Shown: positions 3,640-35,177 of the stretch, piece after piece
Layout: each line of letters starts with the position of its first letter
Numbering within the stretch: the first letter of the stretch is position 1
IMG/VR virus record: IMGVR_UViG_3300046346_000048
From: a virus
DNA length: 37,754 bases
Reading direction: 5' to 3' (one strand)
Notes under the pieces: generated by a model
The model's input: only the letters and a program-made list of their open reading frames with translations
What the model was told of the DNA's origin: nothing
The model's database searches: none
Made by a program: the position numbers and the translations under genes

Positions 3640-4632
3640 TCAAATCCCGTCAATTGTTACTGAACTGCCATCATATCTAAAGTTAAGACAGATCACGGAA
3701 CCTGTTGCGGGTGCGGTTACACCTAGAGCCAAGGTTCCTGTCAATGAAGCTGCGGACCCCGTAAAAGTGGGTGCAGATACTTCCCCTGCAGGAGTGCCCG
3801 CACTCGCTGCAACAACACCCCCAGCTGTTGCTGAGTTCGCACCTAAATAGGTAGCGTCTGTTGCTTCTTGTTTACCAAGCAAAGGGCCTGCATAGTTTGC
3901 GATATCATTTGTCGTAGATCCTGCTTGCCCTCCGATAACTGTAAAGTTATGGGTATGCGTACCAAGTGCAGAGCCAGAAAATGTCGGAGCAGATATAGTA
4001 CCTGCAGGAGTGTAAGCACCTGCTGTAAATATACCTCCCATGAATTGTAAAAGAAGCCATGCTCCACCATTGGATGCAATGTTTGAATTATTACTTGATA
4101 AGGTTGGATTTCCAACCACTTCAACTCCAAGAATCCCTGATGTTGTAGGAAGCTCAACTCTTGAAGTTGATGTGTTAGCACCAGCACCAACTGCTGTGGC
4201 AATAAAGGACACTCCCACCGCAGGTGTTACACCTTGTGGAAGTCCTATGGCTTGCCATTGAGCCAATGTAGAATTCCCCACAATCGTGATTACATAAGCT
4301 TGACCTGCAGTTAAAGCAGAGTTATCAATCTTAGTTGAAGTTGCGGTAGGGACTTGTGCTTGTACAAATCCGTTTAAATAATAATTAAAATTGTTTTGAA
4401 ATTGAATAAGAGCAAATCCGGCAGCAGGATTAGGATTTGTATATCCATCATTAGATCCTGGTGTTGTAGATGTGTGCATGAATACGTTACGTACATACCC
4501 ATTGCTTTTAAGCGATGTAATACCAAGACTATTTGTCGGCGTTACGGTAAATTGTAATCCGATATCCATTGGTTTAGTGACGTTTGTATAAATTGATTTG
4601 CCGTTAAGGCCAAAACCGCGGGCTACTGACAT
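3640..4632 (-). CDS. Hypothetical structural protein (330 aa) with duplicated TPAG..SAPTF.GSA segments and a THTHNF motif
   Basis: First gene downstream of the capsid gene, preceded by conserved late motif A. The internal repeat is YTPAGTISAPTFSGSALGTHTHNF / GTPAGEVSAPTFTGSAASL. Confidence 0.5.
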   Translation of the reverse strand: MSVARGFGLNGKSIYTNVTKPMDIGLQFTVTPTNSLGITSLKSNGYVRNVFMHTSTTPGSNDGYTNPNPAAGFALIQFQNNFNYYLNGFVQAQVPTATSTKIDNSALTAGQAYVITIVGNSTLAQWQAIGLPQGVTPAVGVSFIATAVGAGANTSTSRVELPTTSGILGVEVVGNPTLSSNNSNIASNGGAWLLLQFMGGIFTAGAYTPAGTISAPTFSGSALGTHTHNFTVIGGQAGSTTNDIANYAGPLLGKQEATDATYLGANSATAGGVVAASAGTPAGEVSAPTFTGSAASLTGTLALGVTAPATGSVICLNFRYDGSSVTIDGI

Positions 4633-4719
4633 AAATTTGTCCCTTTATAGCGTTGAAAATTCTCTCCGCACGGACTCAACGCCCTCCGGCGGCAGTATGA
4701 CTTGGGCAGTCTTCATATG

Positions 4720-4741: not shown

Positions 4742-4766
4742 AGCTAGCTAGAGAACCCAGCTAGCT
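4742..4766 (-). terminator. Stem-loop starting 7 nt after the capsid stop codon (possible attenuator, terminator or mRNA stabiliser)
   Basis: Two copies of the self-complementary octamer AGCTAGCT (4742-4749 and 4759-4766) are separated by 9 nt, giving an 8-bp stem. No U-tract follows, so intrinsic termination is uncertain. Confidence 0.35.
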
Positions 4767-4772
4767 TATTTA

Positions 4773-5090
4773 CTACGCAGATAAGAGAACGTTCATGTTC
4801 CAACCTGGGGCACTGTTTATTACGTTCCCGTAATAAGCCAGCCTGACCTCAAGAGCGTCCGCATTTCCAACTCTTAAGCCTTCCAACCCCTCCATGCCGT
4901 AGGTCAGAATGTGCGGTGCTTTTCCAAGTGTACGCAGCTTCCATGTATCCATAGTCAAACACCATGCTGTTTGCGGTTGGCATGAACGATCCGCAACAAC
5001 TGGAATTTTTCCATAAGCACTGTGGAAATGAATAGCTTCGAAAGCTACTTCAACTTCATCATGCTCAAGCATGACATATTGAACTTTTGC
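4773..5090 (-). CDS. Major capsid protein, exon 3 (105 codons plus stop)
   Basis: The frame of the 99-aa ORF (4773-5072) is open upstream to 5123. Intron 2 ends in G at 5091, and exon 3 then reads AKVQYVMLEHDEVEVAFEAIHFHSAYGKIPVVADRS... This is a typical capsid C-terminal pattern (G.iPVv.s) and is in frame with exon 2. Confidence 0.75.
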   Translation of the reverse strand, partial: AKVQYVMLEHDEVEVAFEAIHFHSAYGKIPVVADRSCQPQTAWCLTMDTWKLRTLGKAPHILTYGMEGLEGLRVGNADALEVRLAYYGNVINSAPGWNMNVLLSA

Positions 5091-5291
5091 CGTTTTGTTA
5101 CTCCACCTTTCGGTGTGGCCTACTCACCTCTTCGGGCTTCGGCTCTCGGATTTTATTTATTGTCCGAGTTCAGACTATCGCATCCCTTTCGGGTCTTCTC
5201 ACTTAGTCGTTCACGCTGCTTTCGCTTGCGCCCTGTCAGCCTGTCGGCCTTCCAAGTCAATCAGAGAAGATTTAGACTGGGCACAAAGTTT
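5091..5291 (-). ncRNA. Group I-like self-splicing intron 2 in the capsid gene (201 nt, no ORF)
   Basis: Paralogue of 6093-6306. The 5' exon ACUGGGU pairs with intron GCCCAGU (5276-5282), with a U:G wobble at the junction. The intron ends in G. Intron AACUUU pairs with 3' exon AAAGUU (P10). There are several GNRA-capped hairpins. Removing the intron joins ...STLVNELG to AKVQYVML... in frame. Confidence 0.8.
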
Positions 5292-6092
5292 ACCCAGTTC
5301 GTTCACAAGAGTTGAGTAACTTAGAAAGTCGATCACGATAAGATCGCAGTCTGCACCCTCTCGGTTTGCAAATGCCAAGGCATTCGTTAGACCTTCGGAG
5401 ATACTTTGAGATGAAGCATTATAGCGAAGCCCTGCTAAACGAGTAGGATCTGCACTACGATTTACTCCCCAGAAATTGTCTGTAGTTGGAGGATCTACAG
5501 AAGGAACCCATGCAGCCAAACCTGAAAGGCCGAGCATACCAGCAATAGTAGAGCTTCCACCAATACCGATATCACCCAAAACTTGTAGGTAGTCACTAGC
5601 AACCCATGATGATTGTGGGGCACCTTGTACAACCGTACCAGAGATTGCACCCGTACCTCGATTTACTGAAGTGATTTGAATTGCATCAATAGTACCTGGT
5701 GTATTTTGTAATGCTGCACCACCATCTGTTGTAGATGCTTGCATTGTCATGCCTACCTCAAACTGCACTACAGATTGAGGATTAAGCAATGTAAAGCTAA
5801 GCGTAGGCGCAACATACGTAACACCTGCTGCTGAGATTTGCCCACGTGATGCAGTCCCACCGTAGAACAACTCGAATGCCATGTTGTTACTAAGGTTGCG
5901 GAAGCCGTTGTCTAGTGTACGAGATGCTTCATCAACAAATGCACCTGCATTACTTTTGGTTTGTTCCATAAGTAAATTGGTAATTGTTATGAGCTGGTAA
6001 TCCTGAATCGCATACACAAAGTAACTTACAACATCACTTGCTGTTTGCTGATTCTGAGCATTCGCAAATGTGTGACTTCGACCTTGTGGATT
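5292..6092 (-). CDS. Major capsid protein, exon 2 (267 codons)
   Basis: This is the core of the 294-aa ORF 5211-6095. The apparent ATG at 6095-6093 is the last 3 nt of intron 1. The apparent C-terminal tail KLCAQSKSSLIDLEGRQADRAQAKAA is a translation of intron 2. The gene follows portal and scaffold genes. Confidence 0.75.
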
Positions 6093-6306
6093 CATTTTGT
6101 TACTCCACCTTTCGGTGTGACCTACTCACCTCTTCGGGCTTCGGCTCTACCACTTCTTTTGTTATATGGTAGTTCAGACTGTCGCATACTCTTTCGAGCC
6201 CCTCTCACTCAGTCGTTCACCGTGCTTTTGCTTCGGCCCTGTCACCTGCTTCCAGGCTTCCAAGTCAATCAGAGAAGGTTTTAATACGGCAATTCCATAA
6301 GGTTTA
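6093..6306 (-). ncRNA. Group I-like self-splicing intron 1 in the capsid gene (214 nt, no ORF)
   Basis: The 5' exon UACGGU pairs with intron GCCGUA (6285-6290), with a U:G wobble at the junction. The intron ends ...AACAAAAUG, so the terminal nucleotide is G. Intron UGGAAUU pairs with 3' exon AAUCCA (P10, with one bulge). Removing the intron joins ...KYIPVPLEYG to NPQGRSHTFANAQ... in frame. Confidence 0.8.
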
Positions 6307-6336
6307 ACCGTACTCTAATGGGACGGGAATATACTT
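6307..6336 (-). CDS. Major capsid protein, exon 1b (KYIPVPLEYG)
   Basis: A short open stretch with no start codon, in the +2 frame relative to exon 1a. It ends exactly at the P1-defined 5' splice site of intron 1. Confidence 0.6.
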
Positions 6337-6377
6337 CCCTGCACAAAATCACATTAGATGATGGGTCTGCTATTTAA
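6337..6377 (-). other. Non-translatable gap inside capsid exon 1 (candidate ribosomal bypass gap or mini-intervening sequence)
   Basis: The exon 1a frame stops at TAA 6356-6354. The exon 1b frame is closed by TAG 6372-6370 and TGA 6351-6349. A 7-bp hairpin, GAUGGGU (6383-6377) with ACCCAUC (6366-6360), contains Gly codon GGG 6380-6378. An identical GGG lies at 6339-6337. Confidence 0.5.
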
Positions 6378-6527
6378 CCCATCTGGACTCTCGTTTTTTG
6401 GAATCATTGCTAGCAACGGATTCTTGTTGTAGACAATGTTCTTCATGTAGTCTTTGTCATCCACATACAATTCTTTTAGAGCAGCAAGCTGATTGCTGCT
6501 ATTAGCATATTGCGGACTGATAGTCAT
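6378..6527 (-). CDS. Major capsid protein, exon 1a (50 codons, MTISPQYANSSNQLAALKELYVDDKDYMKNIVYNKNPLLAMIPKNESPDG)
   Basis: The ATG at 6527-6525 lies 5 nt after the scaffold gene stop. The full in-frame ORF is 59 aa, so it falls below the track cutoff. The sequence resembles capsid N-termini (..L.ELY......v.....Pl.a.i.k), judged from memory. Confidence 0.6.
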
Positions 6528-6532
6528 AAATT

Positions 6533-7384
6533 TTACCTTTTATAAGTTCCGTAATAGGCAGCTAAAGCCCTCGCTTTCCTACCCATTGGAACGGACGCAG
6601 TGTCTCTGTTTGTCAAAGTCCTCATGCCTTGAGGTTGACGTTGCTGCGTCTGCAAAGCGGCTTGAGGGTATAAACTTTGCATCTTTTTTACTTTTGCTAC
6701 TCGCTGAGCGTCTTTGAAGAGTTCATCTTCGACAAGTTTCATTGCCTCGGGCACATCAAGAACTTCTTTACGTTCTCTCCATGTCCTCTCAATGAGCTTA
6801 ACGACAGTAGGAACACTCCTTGTTTCCCGTACCAATTCAAACGCGTCGCTGCGGCTCAAATGATCTGCTTCTCTTCGCATTTCTGCTAAGACTTGCCTTT
6901 CGGCTAAAGCATCTTTCTCAACAAACTTCTGATCTACACCCTGTCTTAAAGCTTCAATTTCTGCTTTAAGCTTATGCACCTCATTGTTTTGTTGATTACT
7001 CATAACCGCTTGTGCAAGCTGATCATAAGTCACACCATTTTCAAGTAACACATTCAAAGGATCGGATTTGAGACGACTAAGCTCGATCATGCCTTCTTTG
7101 GGCGCATTCGCTAAAGCTTGTTCTCTTACAAGAAGTTCCTTCTGACGAATCTGAAGAGCTCTTCTTTCTTTTGCTATCCGAGCTATTTGAGGGTCAATAG
7201 GCTGTGTTGCTGCACGTTCCTGTTTGACTTCTGGTGTTACATTAGTGGGTTCAGTGGGGCGATATTCTTCAGGATTAGCATTTGTAATCATCTTTATAGA
7301 TTGCAAAGGATGATTTTGAGGTGCGGTTACTCCCTGTTGATTCATAGTAGGGAGTCCACTTGTAGGCATTGGAGATACTTTCAT
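6533..7384 (-). CDS. Scaffolding protein
   Basis: 283 aa, highly charged and Gln/Glu/Lys/Arg-rich with long predicted helical and coiled-coil stretches. It lies between the portal and capsid genes. Confidence 0.65.
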   Translation of the reverse strand: MKVSPMPTSGLPTMNQQGVTAPQNHPLQSIKMITNANPEEYRPTEPTNVTPEVKQERAATQPIDPQIARIAKERRALQIRQKELLVREQALANAPKEGMIELSRLKSDPLNVLLENGVTYDQLAQAVMSNQQNNEVHKLKAEIEALRQGVDQKFVEKDALAERQVLAEMRREADHLSRSDAFELVRETRSVPTVVKLIERTWRERKEVLDVPEAMKLVEDELFKDAQRVAKVKKMQSLYPQAALQTQQRQPQGMRTLTNRDTASVPMGRKARALAAYYGTYKR

Positions 7385-16817: not shown

Positions 16818-17117
16818 ATGAAAATTACATCTGTACAAGAAATACAAAAAGCAACCGAACTTCGAAAGATCATGGATCTGAGGCTTTTTGCAGAAAAGAA
16901 AGAAACGGAACTGAAAAAACATTTCAAGGATTTAATGGGTAAGGAGGAGATTCTTAACATAGGAGATAAATTCATAGTTTTTCTTGAACCTAGAGAACGC
17001 ACAGGACTTGATGCGAATAGATTAAGAATGGCTCTTGGTGAGAGAATTCATGAATTTGAAACAATAAGCTTTTACAAAATTTTCAATTTGAAAGAAACAA
17101 AGGAGAATAAAAAATGA
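16818..17117 (+). CDS. Hypothetical early protein (99 aa)
   Basis: A strong ribosome-binding site, AAAGGAGGAAACAAAATG, and it is the first gene of a plus-strand block. Confidence 0.55.
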   Translation: MKITSVQEIQKATELRKIMDLRLFAEKKETELKKHFKDLMGKEEILNIGDKFIVFLEPRERTGLDANRLRMALGERIHEFETISFYKIFNLKETKENKK

Positions 17118-33501: not shown

Positions 33502-35177
33502 GCTCGTTTCCTTTTTGCTAGAACTTGAGCGACGAATTGCGCAGATGCATTTATAGGATCTTTTCCTTGCGTCACAGATCTAGGAATCACAATCTCATGC
33601 TCAGATAACAATGCGGGGATCTTGTCATTTGCGTAACTATTGCCTGACTTTGTGGCCTTTTGTTTTTGAGATTCTGCTTTTACATTCCCTCCTGCGGTAT
33701 AATCTTTCTTTGCCATACCCCCCTTAGCAGCAGCTAAAGCACTTAAGGCAGCCGCCTCAGGCATAATATCAATCGCACCTGTAGCAGCAGCAGGCGCTTC
33801 AAAAGATGTTGCACCTGCGCCCATTCCTGCTGATGCAGGAGTTGTAGGAGTCATCCAATTTTGAATGGCTTGCGAAAGAGGTTTTCCAAAACTTGATATT
33901 CCCTGCTGCAATGCTTGAGCCCCTAGATTATTTCCAGCCATATTAAAATTATTTTGAGGATTCCCATTCTTATTCTGGTTTCCTTGTAAGGCACCTTTAA
34001 GAAATTTTCCAAACGAACTCGACGGCCCAGGGATATTTTGAGTACTGTTATCATTATTTATTTGAGATGCTTGACCCGCTATACCCTGAGCATTATCTGG
34101 TATAAAATCTCCACTAGCATCATATGCCCCCGTTCCTGAATCCCCTCCATTATCAAAATGCTTAGGTTTTTCTACATCTCCACCTTCAGCATGGATAAGA
34201 GCTCCTAATCCTGTACCGACAGCGTTTGCTGCGCCTCCTACTACACCTTGTTGTCCTTGCATATTCGTTTGAGCAAGTCCTGCGTTCGATGCGTTAATAT
34301 TGCCTTGCATTGAAACATTTGCATTATTTTGAGCAGCAAGAGCCTCTTGTTGTATCTGCTGTTCTGATTGTAGAGCTTGTGTATTTTGCGTAGTAGCCCC
34401 GATTTGTTGACCTGCCATCGTGTTGGCTTGTCCTGCAAGAGCAGCTTGTTGTGCTTGCTGTTGCCCTGTAATCCCCGCTGCTGCTGCTTGCTGCGCGCCG
34501 ATCCCAGCTTGTTGTTGACCGATTTGTTGACCAGCAGTATTTGCAACGCTCTGTTGCGCAGCACCTATCCCCGCTAATGCGTTCAAACTTTGATTCGCCT
34601 GCATCGAAGCGCCTTGACCCACTGCCTGTTGCTGTGTGGCAGCACCTTGCTGGGCAGCTTGCCTTGCAAGAAGCCCTACATTGGAACTTGCCCCACGTTG
34701 ACCTGCCATAAGAGCAGCTTGATTTGCAACGTTTTCGCCTGTCTGTTGATTAAGCATAGCCATTGCAGGATTCGGGCCTGTACCATTTGCGATGCCTTGA
34801 TATTGCTGAGCAAGAGCTTGCTGCGCCTGTAAAGCAGCTTGTTGATTTTGTACTCCTCCCACACTACCAAATTGTTGATTTAATCCCTGCTGCTGCTGTA
34901 AGGCTTGCCCTTGTGCATTTACTGCACCAAGATTTCCTTGTTGATTAGCAAGAGCCTGTTGTTGATTTAAAACAGAGGATTGATTTTGAATGCCCTGTTG
35001 AGATTGCAACGCATTAAGAAGCCCTTGCTGACTTGATAAGCCTCGATTTGCATTGTATTGAGATATCCCAATATCTGATTCATTTGTTCCAGGTGTAATA
35101 ACCGCACTACCAGGAGCTTTAAAGCCCGATCCGCTAGCTCCGCCTGCGGTTCCTATAAGTCCCCCAATAGCACCCAT
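33498..35177 (-). CDS. Gln/Ala/Gly-rich protein (559 aa), internal virion or ejection protein candidate
   Basis: About 300 aa of Q/A/G/N low-complexity sequence. Motifs are HAEGGDVEKPKHFDNGGDSG and YTAGGNVKAE. The C-terminus is LLSEHEIVIPRSV. Confidence 0.45.
   Translation of the reverse strand: MGAIGGLIGTAGGASGSGFKAPGSAVITPGTNESDIGISQYNANRGLSSQQGLLNALQSQQGIQNQSSVLNQQQALANQQGNLGAVNAQGQALQQQQGLNQQFGSVGGVQNQQAALQAQQALAQQYQGIANGTGPNPAMAMLNQQTGENVANQAALMAGQRGASSNVGLLARQAAQQGAATQQQAVGQGASMQANQSLNALAGIGAAQQSVANTAGQQIGQQQAGIGAQQAAAAGITGQQQAQQAALAGQANTMAGQQIGATTQNTQALQSEQQIQQEALAAQNNANVSMQGNINASNAGLAQTNMQGQQGVVGGAANAVGTGLGALIHAEGGDVEKPKHFDNGGDSGTGAYDASGDFIPDNAQGIAGQASQINNDNSTQNIPGPSSSFGKFLKGALQGNQNKNGNPQNNFNMAGNNLGAQALQQGISSFGKPLSQAIQNWMTPTTPASAGMGAGATSFEAPAAATGAIDIMPEAAALSALAAAKGGMAKKDYTAGGNVKAESQKQKATKSGNSYANDKIPALLSEHEIVIPRSVTQGKDPINASAQFVAQVLAKRKRA

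Follow-up and report, generated by a model that had tools for sequence, protein, structure and literature searches.

Two compact putative group I introns and a candidate core-less mini-intron in the major capsid gene of an uncultured phage

The viral record IMGVR_UViG_3300046346_000048 was analysed as one whole contig of 37,754 nucleotides (nt), which is called the window in what follows. On its minus strand this phage of about 38 kb carries the gene of a major capsid protein of 435 amino acids, and this gene is interrupted three times, by an element of 32 nt and by two longer elements, introns A and B. A search with the provisionally spliced protein yielded thousands of relatives, the best 120 of which were almost all uninterrupted proteins of 435 amino acids with 85-89% identity to the query, and seven relatives were aligned to fix the junctions. 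By alignment with the uninterrupted homologues the junction of intron A was placed at ...PLEYG|NPQGR... and that of intron B at ...VNELG|AKVQY..., both within invariant stretches of the protein, and both introns are preceded by U and terminated by G. Removal of the two introns together with the 32-nt element leaves an intact open reading frame (ORF) of 1308 nt for 435 amino acids, which aligns without gaps to the uninterrupted homologues P0001-P0003 and has 389-391 of 435 residues in common with them (89-90% identity). The identical capsid region is found on 10 contigs, five of which were read and stem from five different samples. The parts of the gene are listed here from its 5' end, with the evidence for each in brackets.

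6376..6527, minus strand: capsid exon 1, M1...PDG plus the UU of a Phe codon (ORF list, alignment with the 435-residue homologues, check of the spliced ORF).
6376..6383, minus strand: last 8 nt of exon 1, GAUGGGUU, the predicted P1 5' strand of the mini-intron (P1/P10 scoring, folding).
6344..6375, minus strand: candidate core-less mini-intron of 32 nt, AAAUAGCAGACCCAUCAUCUAAUGUGAUUUUG (removal restores PDG-F-A-GKY; P1/P10; covarying guides of relatives); its parts are the P10 guide GCA at 6370-6368, the internal guide GACCCAUC at 6367-6360 and the terminal G at 6344.
6307..6343, minus strand: micro-exon of 37 nt, U GCA GGG AAG UAU AUU CCC GUC CCA UUA GAG UAC GGU, encoding (F)AGKYIPVPLEYG (residues invariant in homologues).
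6307..6314, minus strand: predicted P1 5' strand of intron A, AGUACGGU, with U6307 opposite G6290 (P1/P10 scoring, folding).
6093..6306, minus strand: intron A, a very probable group I intron of 214 nt (junctions, helix parse, covariance model R1 with 171.1 bits and E = 2e-49); L1 and P10 guide at 6306-6291, internal guide at 6290-6283, core P3-P9.2 at 6278-6106, terminal G at 6093.
6177..6214, minus strand: P3/P7 pseudoknot region of intron A (helix parse; covariation of P7 and P3); P7 5' strand GACUG at 6214-6210, then J7/3, P3 3' strand at 6206-6200, P8 at 6199-6188, J8/7 AUGCGA at 6187-6182, P7 3' strand CAGUC at 6181-6177.
5292..6092, minus strand: capsid exon 3, NPQGR...VNELG (homologue alignment, check of the spliced ORF).
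5292..5298, minus strand: predicted P1 5' strand of intron B, ACUGGGU, with U5292 opposite G5282 (P1/P10 scoring, folding with z = -3.9).
5091..5291, minus strand: intron B, a very probable group I intron of 201 nt (junctions, helix parse, model R1 with 172.5 bits and E = 7e-50); L1 and P10 guide at 5291-5283, internal guide at 5282-5276, core P3-P9.2 at 5270-5104, terminal G at 5091.
5173..5208, minus strand: P7/P3 region of intron B (helix parse, covariation); P7 5' strand GACUA at 5208-5204, then J7/3, P3 3' strand at 5200-5194, P8 at 5193-5184, J8/7 at 5183-5178, P7 3' strand UAGUC at 5177-5173.
4773..5090, minus strand: capsid exon 4, AKVQY...LLSA and the stop codon (homologue alignment, check of the spliced ORF).

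All nucleotides of the two introns, 201 and 214, could be assigned to the helices and junctions of a group I intron from P1 to P9.2. The layout begins with L1, which contains the P10 guide, and continues with the internal guide forming the 3' strand of P1, J1/3 (the linker from P1 to P3 has 4-5 nt), P3, a J3/4 of 7 nt, P4, P5 and P6/P6a. These are followed by J6/7, the 5' strand of P7, a J7/3 of only 3 nt (AGU), the 3' strand of P3, P8, the J8/7 AUGCGA and the 3' strand of P7, and the 3' part consists of P9, P9.1 with a GAA/GAGUA internal loop and a CGAAGA loop, P9.2 with a GAAA loop, a tail of 12 nt and the terminal G. P7, which is presumed to be the guanosine-binding helix, has the form GACUR/YAGUC; a flanking A-C...U-G permits a bulge, and its 3' strand aligns with that of phage T4 introns. 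Neither intron contains an ORF, and since every nucleotide is taken by helices and junctions there is no room for one encoding an endonuclease.

In each intron P1 is formed between the guide and the final 7-8 nt of the preceding exon, with U.G at the cleavage site, and P10 between the guide and the initial 3-5 nt of the exon that follows. In intron A these helices are AGUACGGU/GCCGUAUU and AAU/AUU (shuffle p = 0.001), P10 being extendable, partly by eye, to CC/GG past a bulge, and in intron B they are ACUGGGU/GCCCAGU and GCAAA/UUUGU (shuffle p = 0.0003). P1 and P10 of both introns are thus far longer than in shuffled sequence, and both P1 hairpins are the minimum-free-energy folds. It is very probable, then, that A and B are group I introns which split the capsid gene, and the standard guanosine-initiated transesterification in two steps, perhaps aided by a protein cofactor, would remove them from the capsid mRNA.

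An earlier reading of this DNA, made without database searches and called here the sequence-only reading, had described A and B as related copies of 214 and 201 nt with five compensatory helix differences and guides specific for their exons. The same lengths were obtained from the junctions fixed by homologues, and the relationship was borne out by an identity of 76% and by four collinear direct-repeat blocks from a repeat search (69, 42, 25 and 17 nt; 86-96% identical), which lie about 1000 nt apart inside 5091-5291 and 6093-6306. All five helix differences were found at the places it had named. Given for A and then for B, they are CCUG-GAAG-CAGG and GCC-GACA-GGC in P5, GCCG..CGGU and GCGC..GCGU in P6, GACUG/CAGUC and GACUA/UAGUC in P7, GCUC-GAAA-GAGU and CCC-GAAA-GGG in P8, and CUACCA/UGGUAG and CUCGGA/UCCGAG in P9; P3 adds a sixth, C-G in one and U-A in the other. 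By alignment and inspection by eye about 10-11 pairs are changed on both sides and still paired, two are changed on one side via G.U and none is broken, five apparently broken cells in the pair count being register shifts of MAFFT in P8 and P9. Differences between A and B are denser in paired columns (25 of 74) than in unpaired ones (19 of 117). A ribozyme whose junctions are conserved and whose stems covary freely would be expected to show this pattern.

The two introns are members of a very large family, whose compact introns are found in uncultured phages. Short exact core patterns yielded four close relatives, and the 18-mer GTGAACGACTNAGTGAGA occurs exactly in at least 120 IMG/VR contigs. 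A first covariation set consisted of 32 diverse members, for which a structure was calculated with RNAalifold and P7 added as a pseudoknot. RNAalifold recovered P3, P4, P5, P6, P8, P9 and P9.1, with compensatory changes in 22 of 34 pairs; with P7 included, 96% of the cells are paired and 23 of 37 pairs have changed on both sides, values not reached in any of 500 shuffles. The covariance model R1 found exactly two copies in the window (172.5 and 171.1 bits) and 149 matches in 100 loci, frequently several in one gene, with three to seven in many of the loci. The alignment of 146 distinct sequences has 96.9% paired cells and changes on both sides in 31 of 33 pairs; it was fitted to model R1 and therefore leans towards the structure. 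When partners were slid, 37-45% of the cells paired in the set of 32 and 36-49% over both alignments. P1 has at least 6 base pairs (bp) in 66 of 76 members, and the mean of P1 plus P10 is 9.2 as compared to 3.8 in shuffles.

Predicted lengths in the family range from 189 to 278 nt with a median of 222, and A and B stand at the small end. Their description as near the smallest group I introns known thus holds as far as closeness to the lower end is concerned, but they are not the minimum, which is seen from the range of the family and from a 190-nt intron of a second family in the related locus L004. In its main points the sequence-only reading was supported: the covariance search it had proposed returned many homologues with strong covariation, selection on structure is indicated by the undisrupted pairs of A and B and by the 96-97% paired cells of the family, the guides proved to be site-specific, P3 to P9 could be assigned in both copies, uninterrupted capsid alleles define the insertion sites, and no credible non-intron RNA family of Rfam was matched.

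Several further observations were made on members of this family. Short R1 matches of 113-150 nt had at first sight the appearance of graded 'midi-introns', which was rejected as they are halves of members with an ORF inserted in L6. Such members, split by an ORF in the P6 loop, are found in L065 (18-185 and 495-615), L078, L024, L087 and L095, and ORF-bearing relatives of the ORF-less family therefore exist. In L078, L022, L009, L036, L074, L107, L100 and L024 three to seven family copies lie within a few kb of a single viral contig, so that some genes are extremely intron-dense. A blastn search of the intron against records of cultured phages gave four weak partial matches only, with core matches in OR420741.1 (Roseobacter phage CRP-118) at 35075-35150, OR395405.1 / PV062637.1 (Desulfovibrio phage 7757) at 81354-81484 and MW202674.1 at 16878-17000. 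These matches lie in stretches without annotation or in a 'hypothetical protein' and suggest that unannotated introns of the family may be present in cultivable systems.

Some results weigh against the assignment of A and B to the group I introns. The Rfam family Intron_gpI (RF00028) has no match to the window or to the intron alone, even at E<=10 on a 216-nt query. P2 is absent, J3/4 has 7 nt, P4 only 4 bp and P5 only 3-4 bp, which is unusual, and P9.0 could not be placed in the helix parse of either intron. With gathering and with permissive thresholds Rfam detected neither a group I nor any other credible family in the window, the intron, 12 related loci and one member of a third intron family described below. 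In a positive control the same Rfam search found the T4 introns of td (40.3 bits, E = 1.5e-7) and nrdB (35.7 bits, E = 3.7e-6), scores which are themselves below the gathering threshold of RF00028 (50 bits), and the miss is therefore not a failure of the tool. A group II intron could be rejected, as the sole trace was a sub-threshold D1-D4 match of 11.8 bits and neither the size nor the U|...G| junctions fit.

When model R1 was compared with the T4 introns of td and nrdB, only a local alignment was obtained, from the 3' strand of P7 and J7/9 (AUAGUCUGrAC) to the start of P9, and because the match is local only, a subgroup could not be assigned from it. The helices P7.1/P7.2 which mark IA1 and IA2 introns are missing in A and B, where J7/3 is only AGU, and the P2 and tRNA anticodon loop location of IC3 introns are missing too, the host being a capsid gene and P2 absent. 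As the family has no P2, no P7.1/P7.2 and no P5abc, no subgroup is given. The T4 introns of td and nrdB (IA2) likewise reside in protein-coding genes of a phage and use the same logic of P1, P10 and terminal G, and the P7 5' strand AACGACUA is presumably also common to them and the A/B family. They differ, however, in having about 0.6-1 kb, endonuclease ORFs and P7.1/P7.2, whereas A and B have a J7/3 of 3 nt, no ORF and no P2; they are seen by RF00028 while the A/B family is not, and R1 has no full-length match to them. Small bacterial tRNA introns (IC3) are another comparison, for instance those of Azoarcus tRNA-Ile with about 205 nt and Anabaena tRNA-Leu with about 249 nt. These are ORF-less and minimal at about 200 nt, as are A and B, but they sit in anticodon loops and have P2, while A and B are located in a capsid mRNA, have no P2, end in three 3'-terminal hairpins P9, P9.1 and P9.2, and have no Rfam sequence match.

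Group I introns have been described in capsid and tail genes of Cluster J mycobacteriophages (PMC3706429), and intron-dense capsid genes in crAss-like phages of the Zeta group, where the introns were recognised via endonuclease domains (PMC7886860). In both cases introns of the self-splicing type interrupt major capsid genes, in some lineages several per gene, as is found here. In kind A and B are therefore ordinary, as structural genes of phages are already known to contain group I introns. The crAss-like introns carry endonuclease domains, whereas the family of the window is ORF-less, has about 200 nt and is accompanied by core-less mini-introns. It is a canonical-looking, uncatalogued lineage of a known ribozyme class. 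An abundant ORF-less family of about 190-280 nt which is missed by Rfam means that capsid and other genes of these phages will be mis-annotated as fragments, and the family provides many natural minimal ribozyme sequences for work on structure and engineering.

The third interruption of the capsid gene, at 6375-6344, was overlooked by the sequence-only reading, which had counted two. It is located 37 nt upstream of intron A. Exon 1 taken as a plain ORF ends in ...NESPDGLNSRPII*, where homologues read NESPDGFAGKYIPVPLEYG, and the residues (F)AGKYIPVPLEYG are encoded at 6343-6307 in a frame other than that of exon 1. A +1 or -1 frameshift across 6375-6344 is impossible, as the 0 frame meets its stop codon at 6356-6354, upstream of 6351-6349, where the target frame has its last stop. 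A splicing product would read ...NESPDGFAGKYIPV... at this junction, and NESPDGFAGKYIPVPLEYGNPQGR would be the peptide of a product spliced at all N-terminal junctions. The 32-nt element can form a P1 of GAUGGGUU/GACCCAUC with U.G at the junction and a P10 of 3 bp, UGC/GCA (shuffle p = 0.004), and this P1 hairpin is also its centroid fold. Only 16 nt separate the guide from the terminal G; a catalytic core (P3-P9) is absent from the element, and no third copy was detected in the window with model R1.

As the identical genotype occurs on 10 contigs, with five read from five samples, this mini-intron is not an assembly artefact. Its exact 32-nt sequence had no match in IMG/VR, but diverged relatives at the same site could be found via truncated N-terminal ORFs, and three of these have covarying guides. 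At this site the exons UUC GCU, UUC GCC, UUU GCC and UUU GCA, all for Phe and Ala, are matched by the guides UAGCGA, GGCGA, GGCAA and GCA, respectively.

In related capsid genes 17 further minis of 32-54 nt were found, distributed over five or more sites, which with the element of the window gives 18 distinct ones. They are located in L002 (5626-5658), L004 (2445-2476), L236 and L240, in the N-terminal capsid region of L301, L305-L308 and L340, and in L350-L355. All minis have a terminal G and a U.G where the 5' splice site lies, and in all of them the complementarity of the guide extends over 3-8 bp to the downstream exon, the guide lengths having been scored computationally for the first 12 minis and by eye for the other six. 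Removal of each mini from the sequence restores the consensus protein exactly. In addition, each mini is followed after 25-75 nt by a full-length intron, or by another mini that is itself so followed, and this full-length intron is a member of the window family or of a second family, often with an endonuclease ORF. Variants of a mini at the same site come from genomes which are only 66-80% identical in the flanks. Where the exon has changed from GCG to GCC for Ala, the internal guide has changed from C to G, and the changes GAG to GAA for Glu, AGU to AGC for Ser and GGU to GGC for Gly are each matched by guide changes as well. Selection on complementarity to both exons, to which these guide changes point, is a prediction of group I exon alignment and would be predicted neither by a hairpin for translational bypass nor by a dead remnant.

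The mini of the window would most simply be a substrate-only derivative which is spliced by the core of the neighbouring intron. For the minis as a group, the chances appear about even that they are non-autonomous group I introns, composed of a P1/P10 guide, a spacer of 15-26 nt and a terminal G, and excised by the core of the downstream intron or by excised intron RNA in trans. The neighbouring full-length core would have to dock the pre-formed P1 of the mini and perform both splicing steps. A pairing of the mini tail with the P7 5' strand of the neighbour for delivery of the terminal G was considered and found unsupported, as the UACGGU of the L002 tail is mutated in L240; the neighbour in L002, a family-1 intron with a different P7, is also at odds with it. 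Engineered 'spliceozymes', in which the Tetrahymena group I ribozyme removes a 100-nt intron from a pre-mRNA in trans, are a precedent for the chemistry (PMC4509937). In them a group I core excises an intervening sequence without a core, which is what is proposed for the mini. The spliceozyme is engineered, however, and the ribozyme supplies the guide strands, whereas the mini is natural and has its own P1/P10 guide, so that the core would have to dock a P1 already formed. A literature search found no description of core-less group I mini-introns and no natural precedent, an absence which is not proof of novelty.

The core-less minis are the most consequential point of this analysis. If the proposal is true, they are a natural counterpart of the engineered spliceozymes and a group I analogue of miniature inverted-repeat transposable elements (MITEs) or of the reduced group II/III introns of Euglena. 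A self-splicing intron would then serve as a shared catalyst for core-less intervening sequences, and A and B would be both introns and the shared splicing catalyst for the capsid mRNA. Such a shared catalyst is a step long imagined in scenarios for the origin of trans-acting splicing machinery.

An alternative is that the mini stays in the RNA and is skipped by a translational bypass of the type of T4 gene 60, from a take-off codon GGG at 6380-6378 to a landing codon GGG at 6339-6337. The hairpin does include the take-off codon and the matching GGG codons are present, and four of the first 12 minis (L002, L340, L004 and L306) have at positions -9 to -7 an in-frame triplet which repeats the final 5'-exon codon or is synonymous with it. 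Seven of these 12, however, lack a matching landing codon. In the window the hop would yield ...NESPDGKYIPV... and thus delete the invariant residues F-A-G, and the codon after take-off is UUA and not a stop. Neither the invariant terminal G and the U.G wobble nor a guide complementary to the 3' exon is predicted by bypass, yet in all minis read there is a P10 of 3-8 bp, and it covaries with synonymous changes in the 3' exon. The 50-nt bypass element of T4 gene 60 resembles the mini in being short, untranslated and inserted in a gene of a phage, and in having a hairpin on the 5' side; it differs from it by matched take-off and landing codons with a stop at take-off and by having no complementarity to the downstream exon. 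Gene 60's element has also been linked to the biology of homing endonucleases. Bypass is thus formally possible in the window and in a few other minis but impossible in most, and it is considered unlikely for the mini of the window. The triplets at -9 to -7 from the 3' splice site, which together with the last 5'-exon codon give the pairs GGU/GGU in L002, CCU/CCU in L340, GGU/GGG in L004 and CCU/CCG in L306, could be due to chance, mimic the 5' exon or serve as a back-up route for hopping.

A recent duplication within the gene, in which one intron copied itself to a second site without an endonuclease, would account for the clear homology of introns A and B with 76% identity, for their presence in a single gene and for the result that none of the 40 ORFs of the window had a Pfam match to HNH, GIY-YIG, LAGLIDADG or Endonuclease VII domains. 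The nearest neighbours of both introns are, however, found in other phages. Intron A is 82% identical to copy 1 of L002 and 81% to a copy at another site in L004, and intron B 82% to copy 3 of L002, 80% to copies in L003 and L117 and 80% to the same-site copy 2 of L002. As each copy is closer to those of other phages (80-82%) than the two are to each other (76%), a recent duplication in the gene is not indicated. Family copies also occupy many other capsid sites in relatives: 53 of 80 related capsid loci are uninterrupted, and the others have one to five interruptions at many sites. Moreover, L004 carries a different intron exactly at the site of intron A, with nearly the same P1, which encodes an Endonuclease_7 domain (PF02945, E = 1.4e-22), and ORFs of this type are common in introns of relatives. 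A duplication is therefore unlikely. The sequence-only reading was right in seeing two copies in one structural gene and no obvious endonuclease, as far as this genome with its 40 ORFs is concerned; the two are not a private pair, though, and relatives do possess an Endonuclease_7 intron at intron A's site.

Collaborative homing with free-standing endonucleases and transposition by reverse splicing are routes by which introns without ORFs can reach new sites; the classical circumstantial case for reverse splicing rests on related introns that occupy different sites within a gene (PMC3984707). Collaborative homing differs from the present case, since no endonuclease gene was found in this genome and the Endonuclease_7 proteins of relatives are intron-encoded and belong to a different intron family. 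The copies would have come to their sites by reverse splicing with retargeted guides, or else by recombination, or by transfer with the help of an endonuclease, in a co-infection with relatives that bear introns; endonuclease-driven events in co-infection are a live route. Rich data on the movement of ORF-less introns are offered by the closely related copies that occupy many sites of a single gene with retargeted guides, together with the endonuclease introns of another family at the same sites.

Two other intron families were noticed in these loci. A second putative group I family of about 190 nt (...CGAACGACUGACAAGGG...GAUAUACAGUCU...) occurs in the same capsid genes, at 3934-4123 in L004 and about 6000-6190 in L002; its members are shorter than A and B, reach 13.8 bits with R1 (E = 0.096) and have no Rfam match. 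A third family (...UAAAUCGGGYAAWAUCGGUGAA...ACCGUA...UACGGUAACAAGUUG) was seen in L004 (2507-3116), where it is the intron at the site of intron A, and in L236, L240, L301, L304-L309, L336, L340, L350 and L353-L356. It has IA-like extra helices between P7 and the 3' strand of P3, almost no P9 and often an Endonuclease_7 ORF.

A mini could also be the dead remnant of a deleted intron, its carriers being non-viable or rescued by unrelated means. The mini of the window does resemble an internal-deletion derivative which keeps L1, the guide, a J1/3-like AUCUAAU and the 3' end ...UUUUG, and the UACGGUAA with which family-3 introns are provided at their 3' end is retained in the tail of the L002 mini. 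That 18 distinct minis at five or more sites have kept P1 and P10 by compensatory changes, though the flanks are only 66-80% identical, and that the genotype of the window recurs in at least five samples, makes such a remnant very unlikely. It is also very unlikely that A and B are decayed or protein-dependent and no longer self-splicing, or that a pseudogene in a defective genome or a misassembly has been analysed, for although RF00028 does not recognise A and B and their size is minimal for this ribozyme class, the junction nucleotides and the single-stranded core are near-invariant in 146 sequences while the stems covary, the identical genotype was assembled independently in at least five samples, and the spliced ORF is intact and gapless with 89-90% identity to uninterrupted homologues.

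Three minor observations concern the capsid gene and its surroundings. In L312 the capsid allele, otherwise uninterrupted, has a frame change of 1 nt at 4064-4080, between residues 355 and 360, which could be a sequencing error or a frameshift. Directly 3' of the capsid stop codon of the window, at about 4745-4770 on the minus strand, there is a near-palindrome, AGCUAGCUGGGUUCUCUAGCUAGCU, which has no Rfam match and could serve as a terminator or as a stabilising hairpin. The capsid gene and the next gene, which encodes 330 amino acids, have a common start motif UAUAAA(A)GGnAnAAUUUAUG on the minus strand at 6525-6544 and 4630-4649, probably a shared ribosome-binding and start context.

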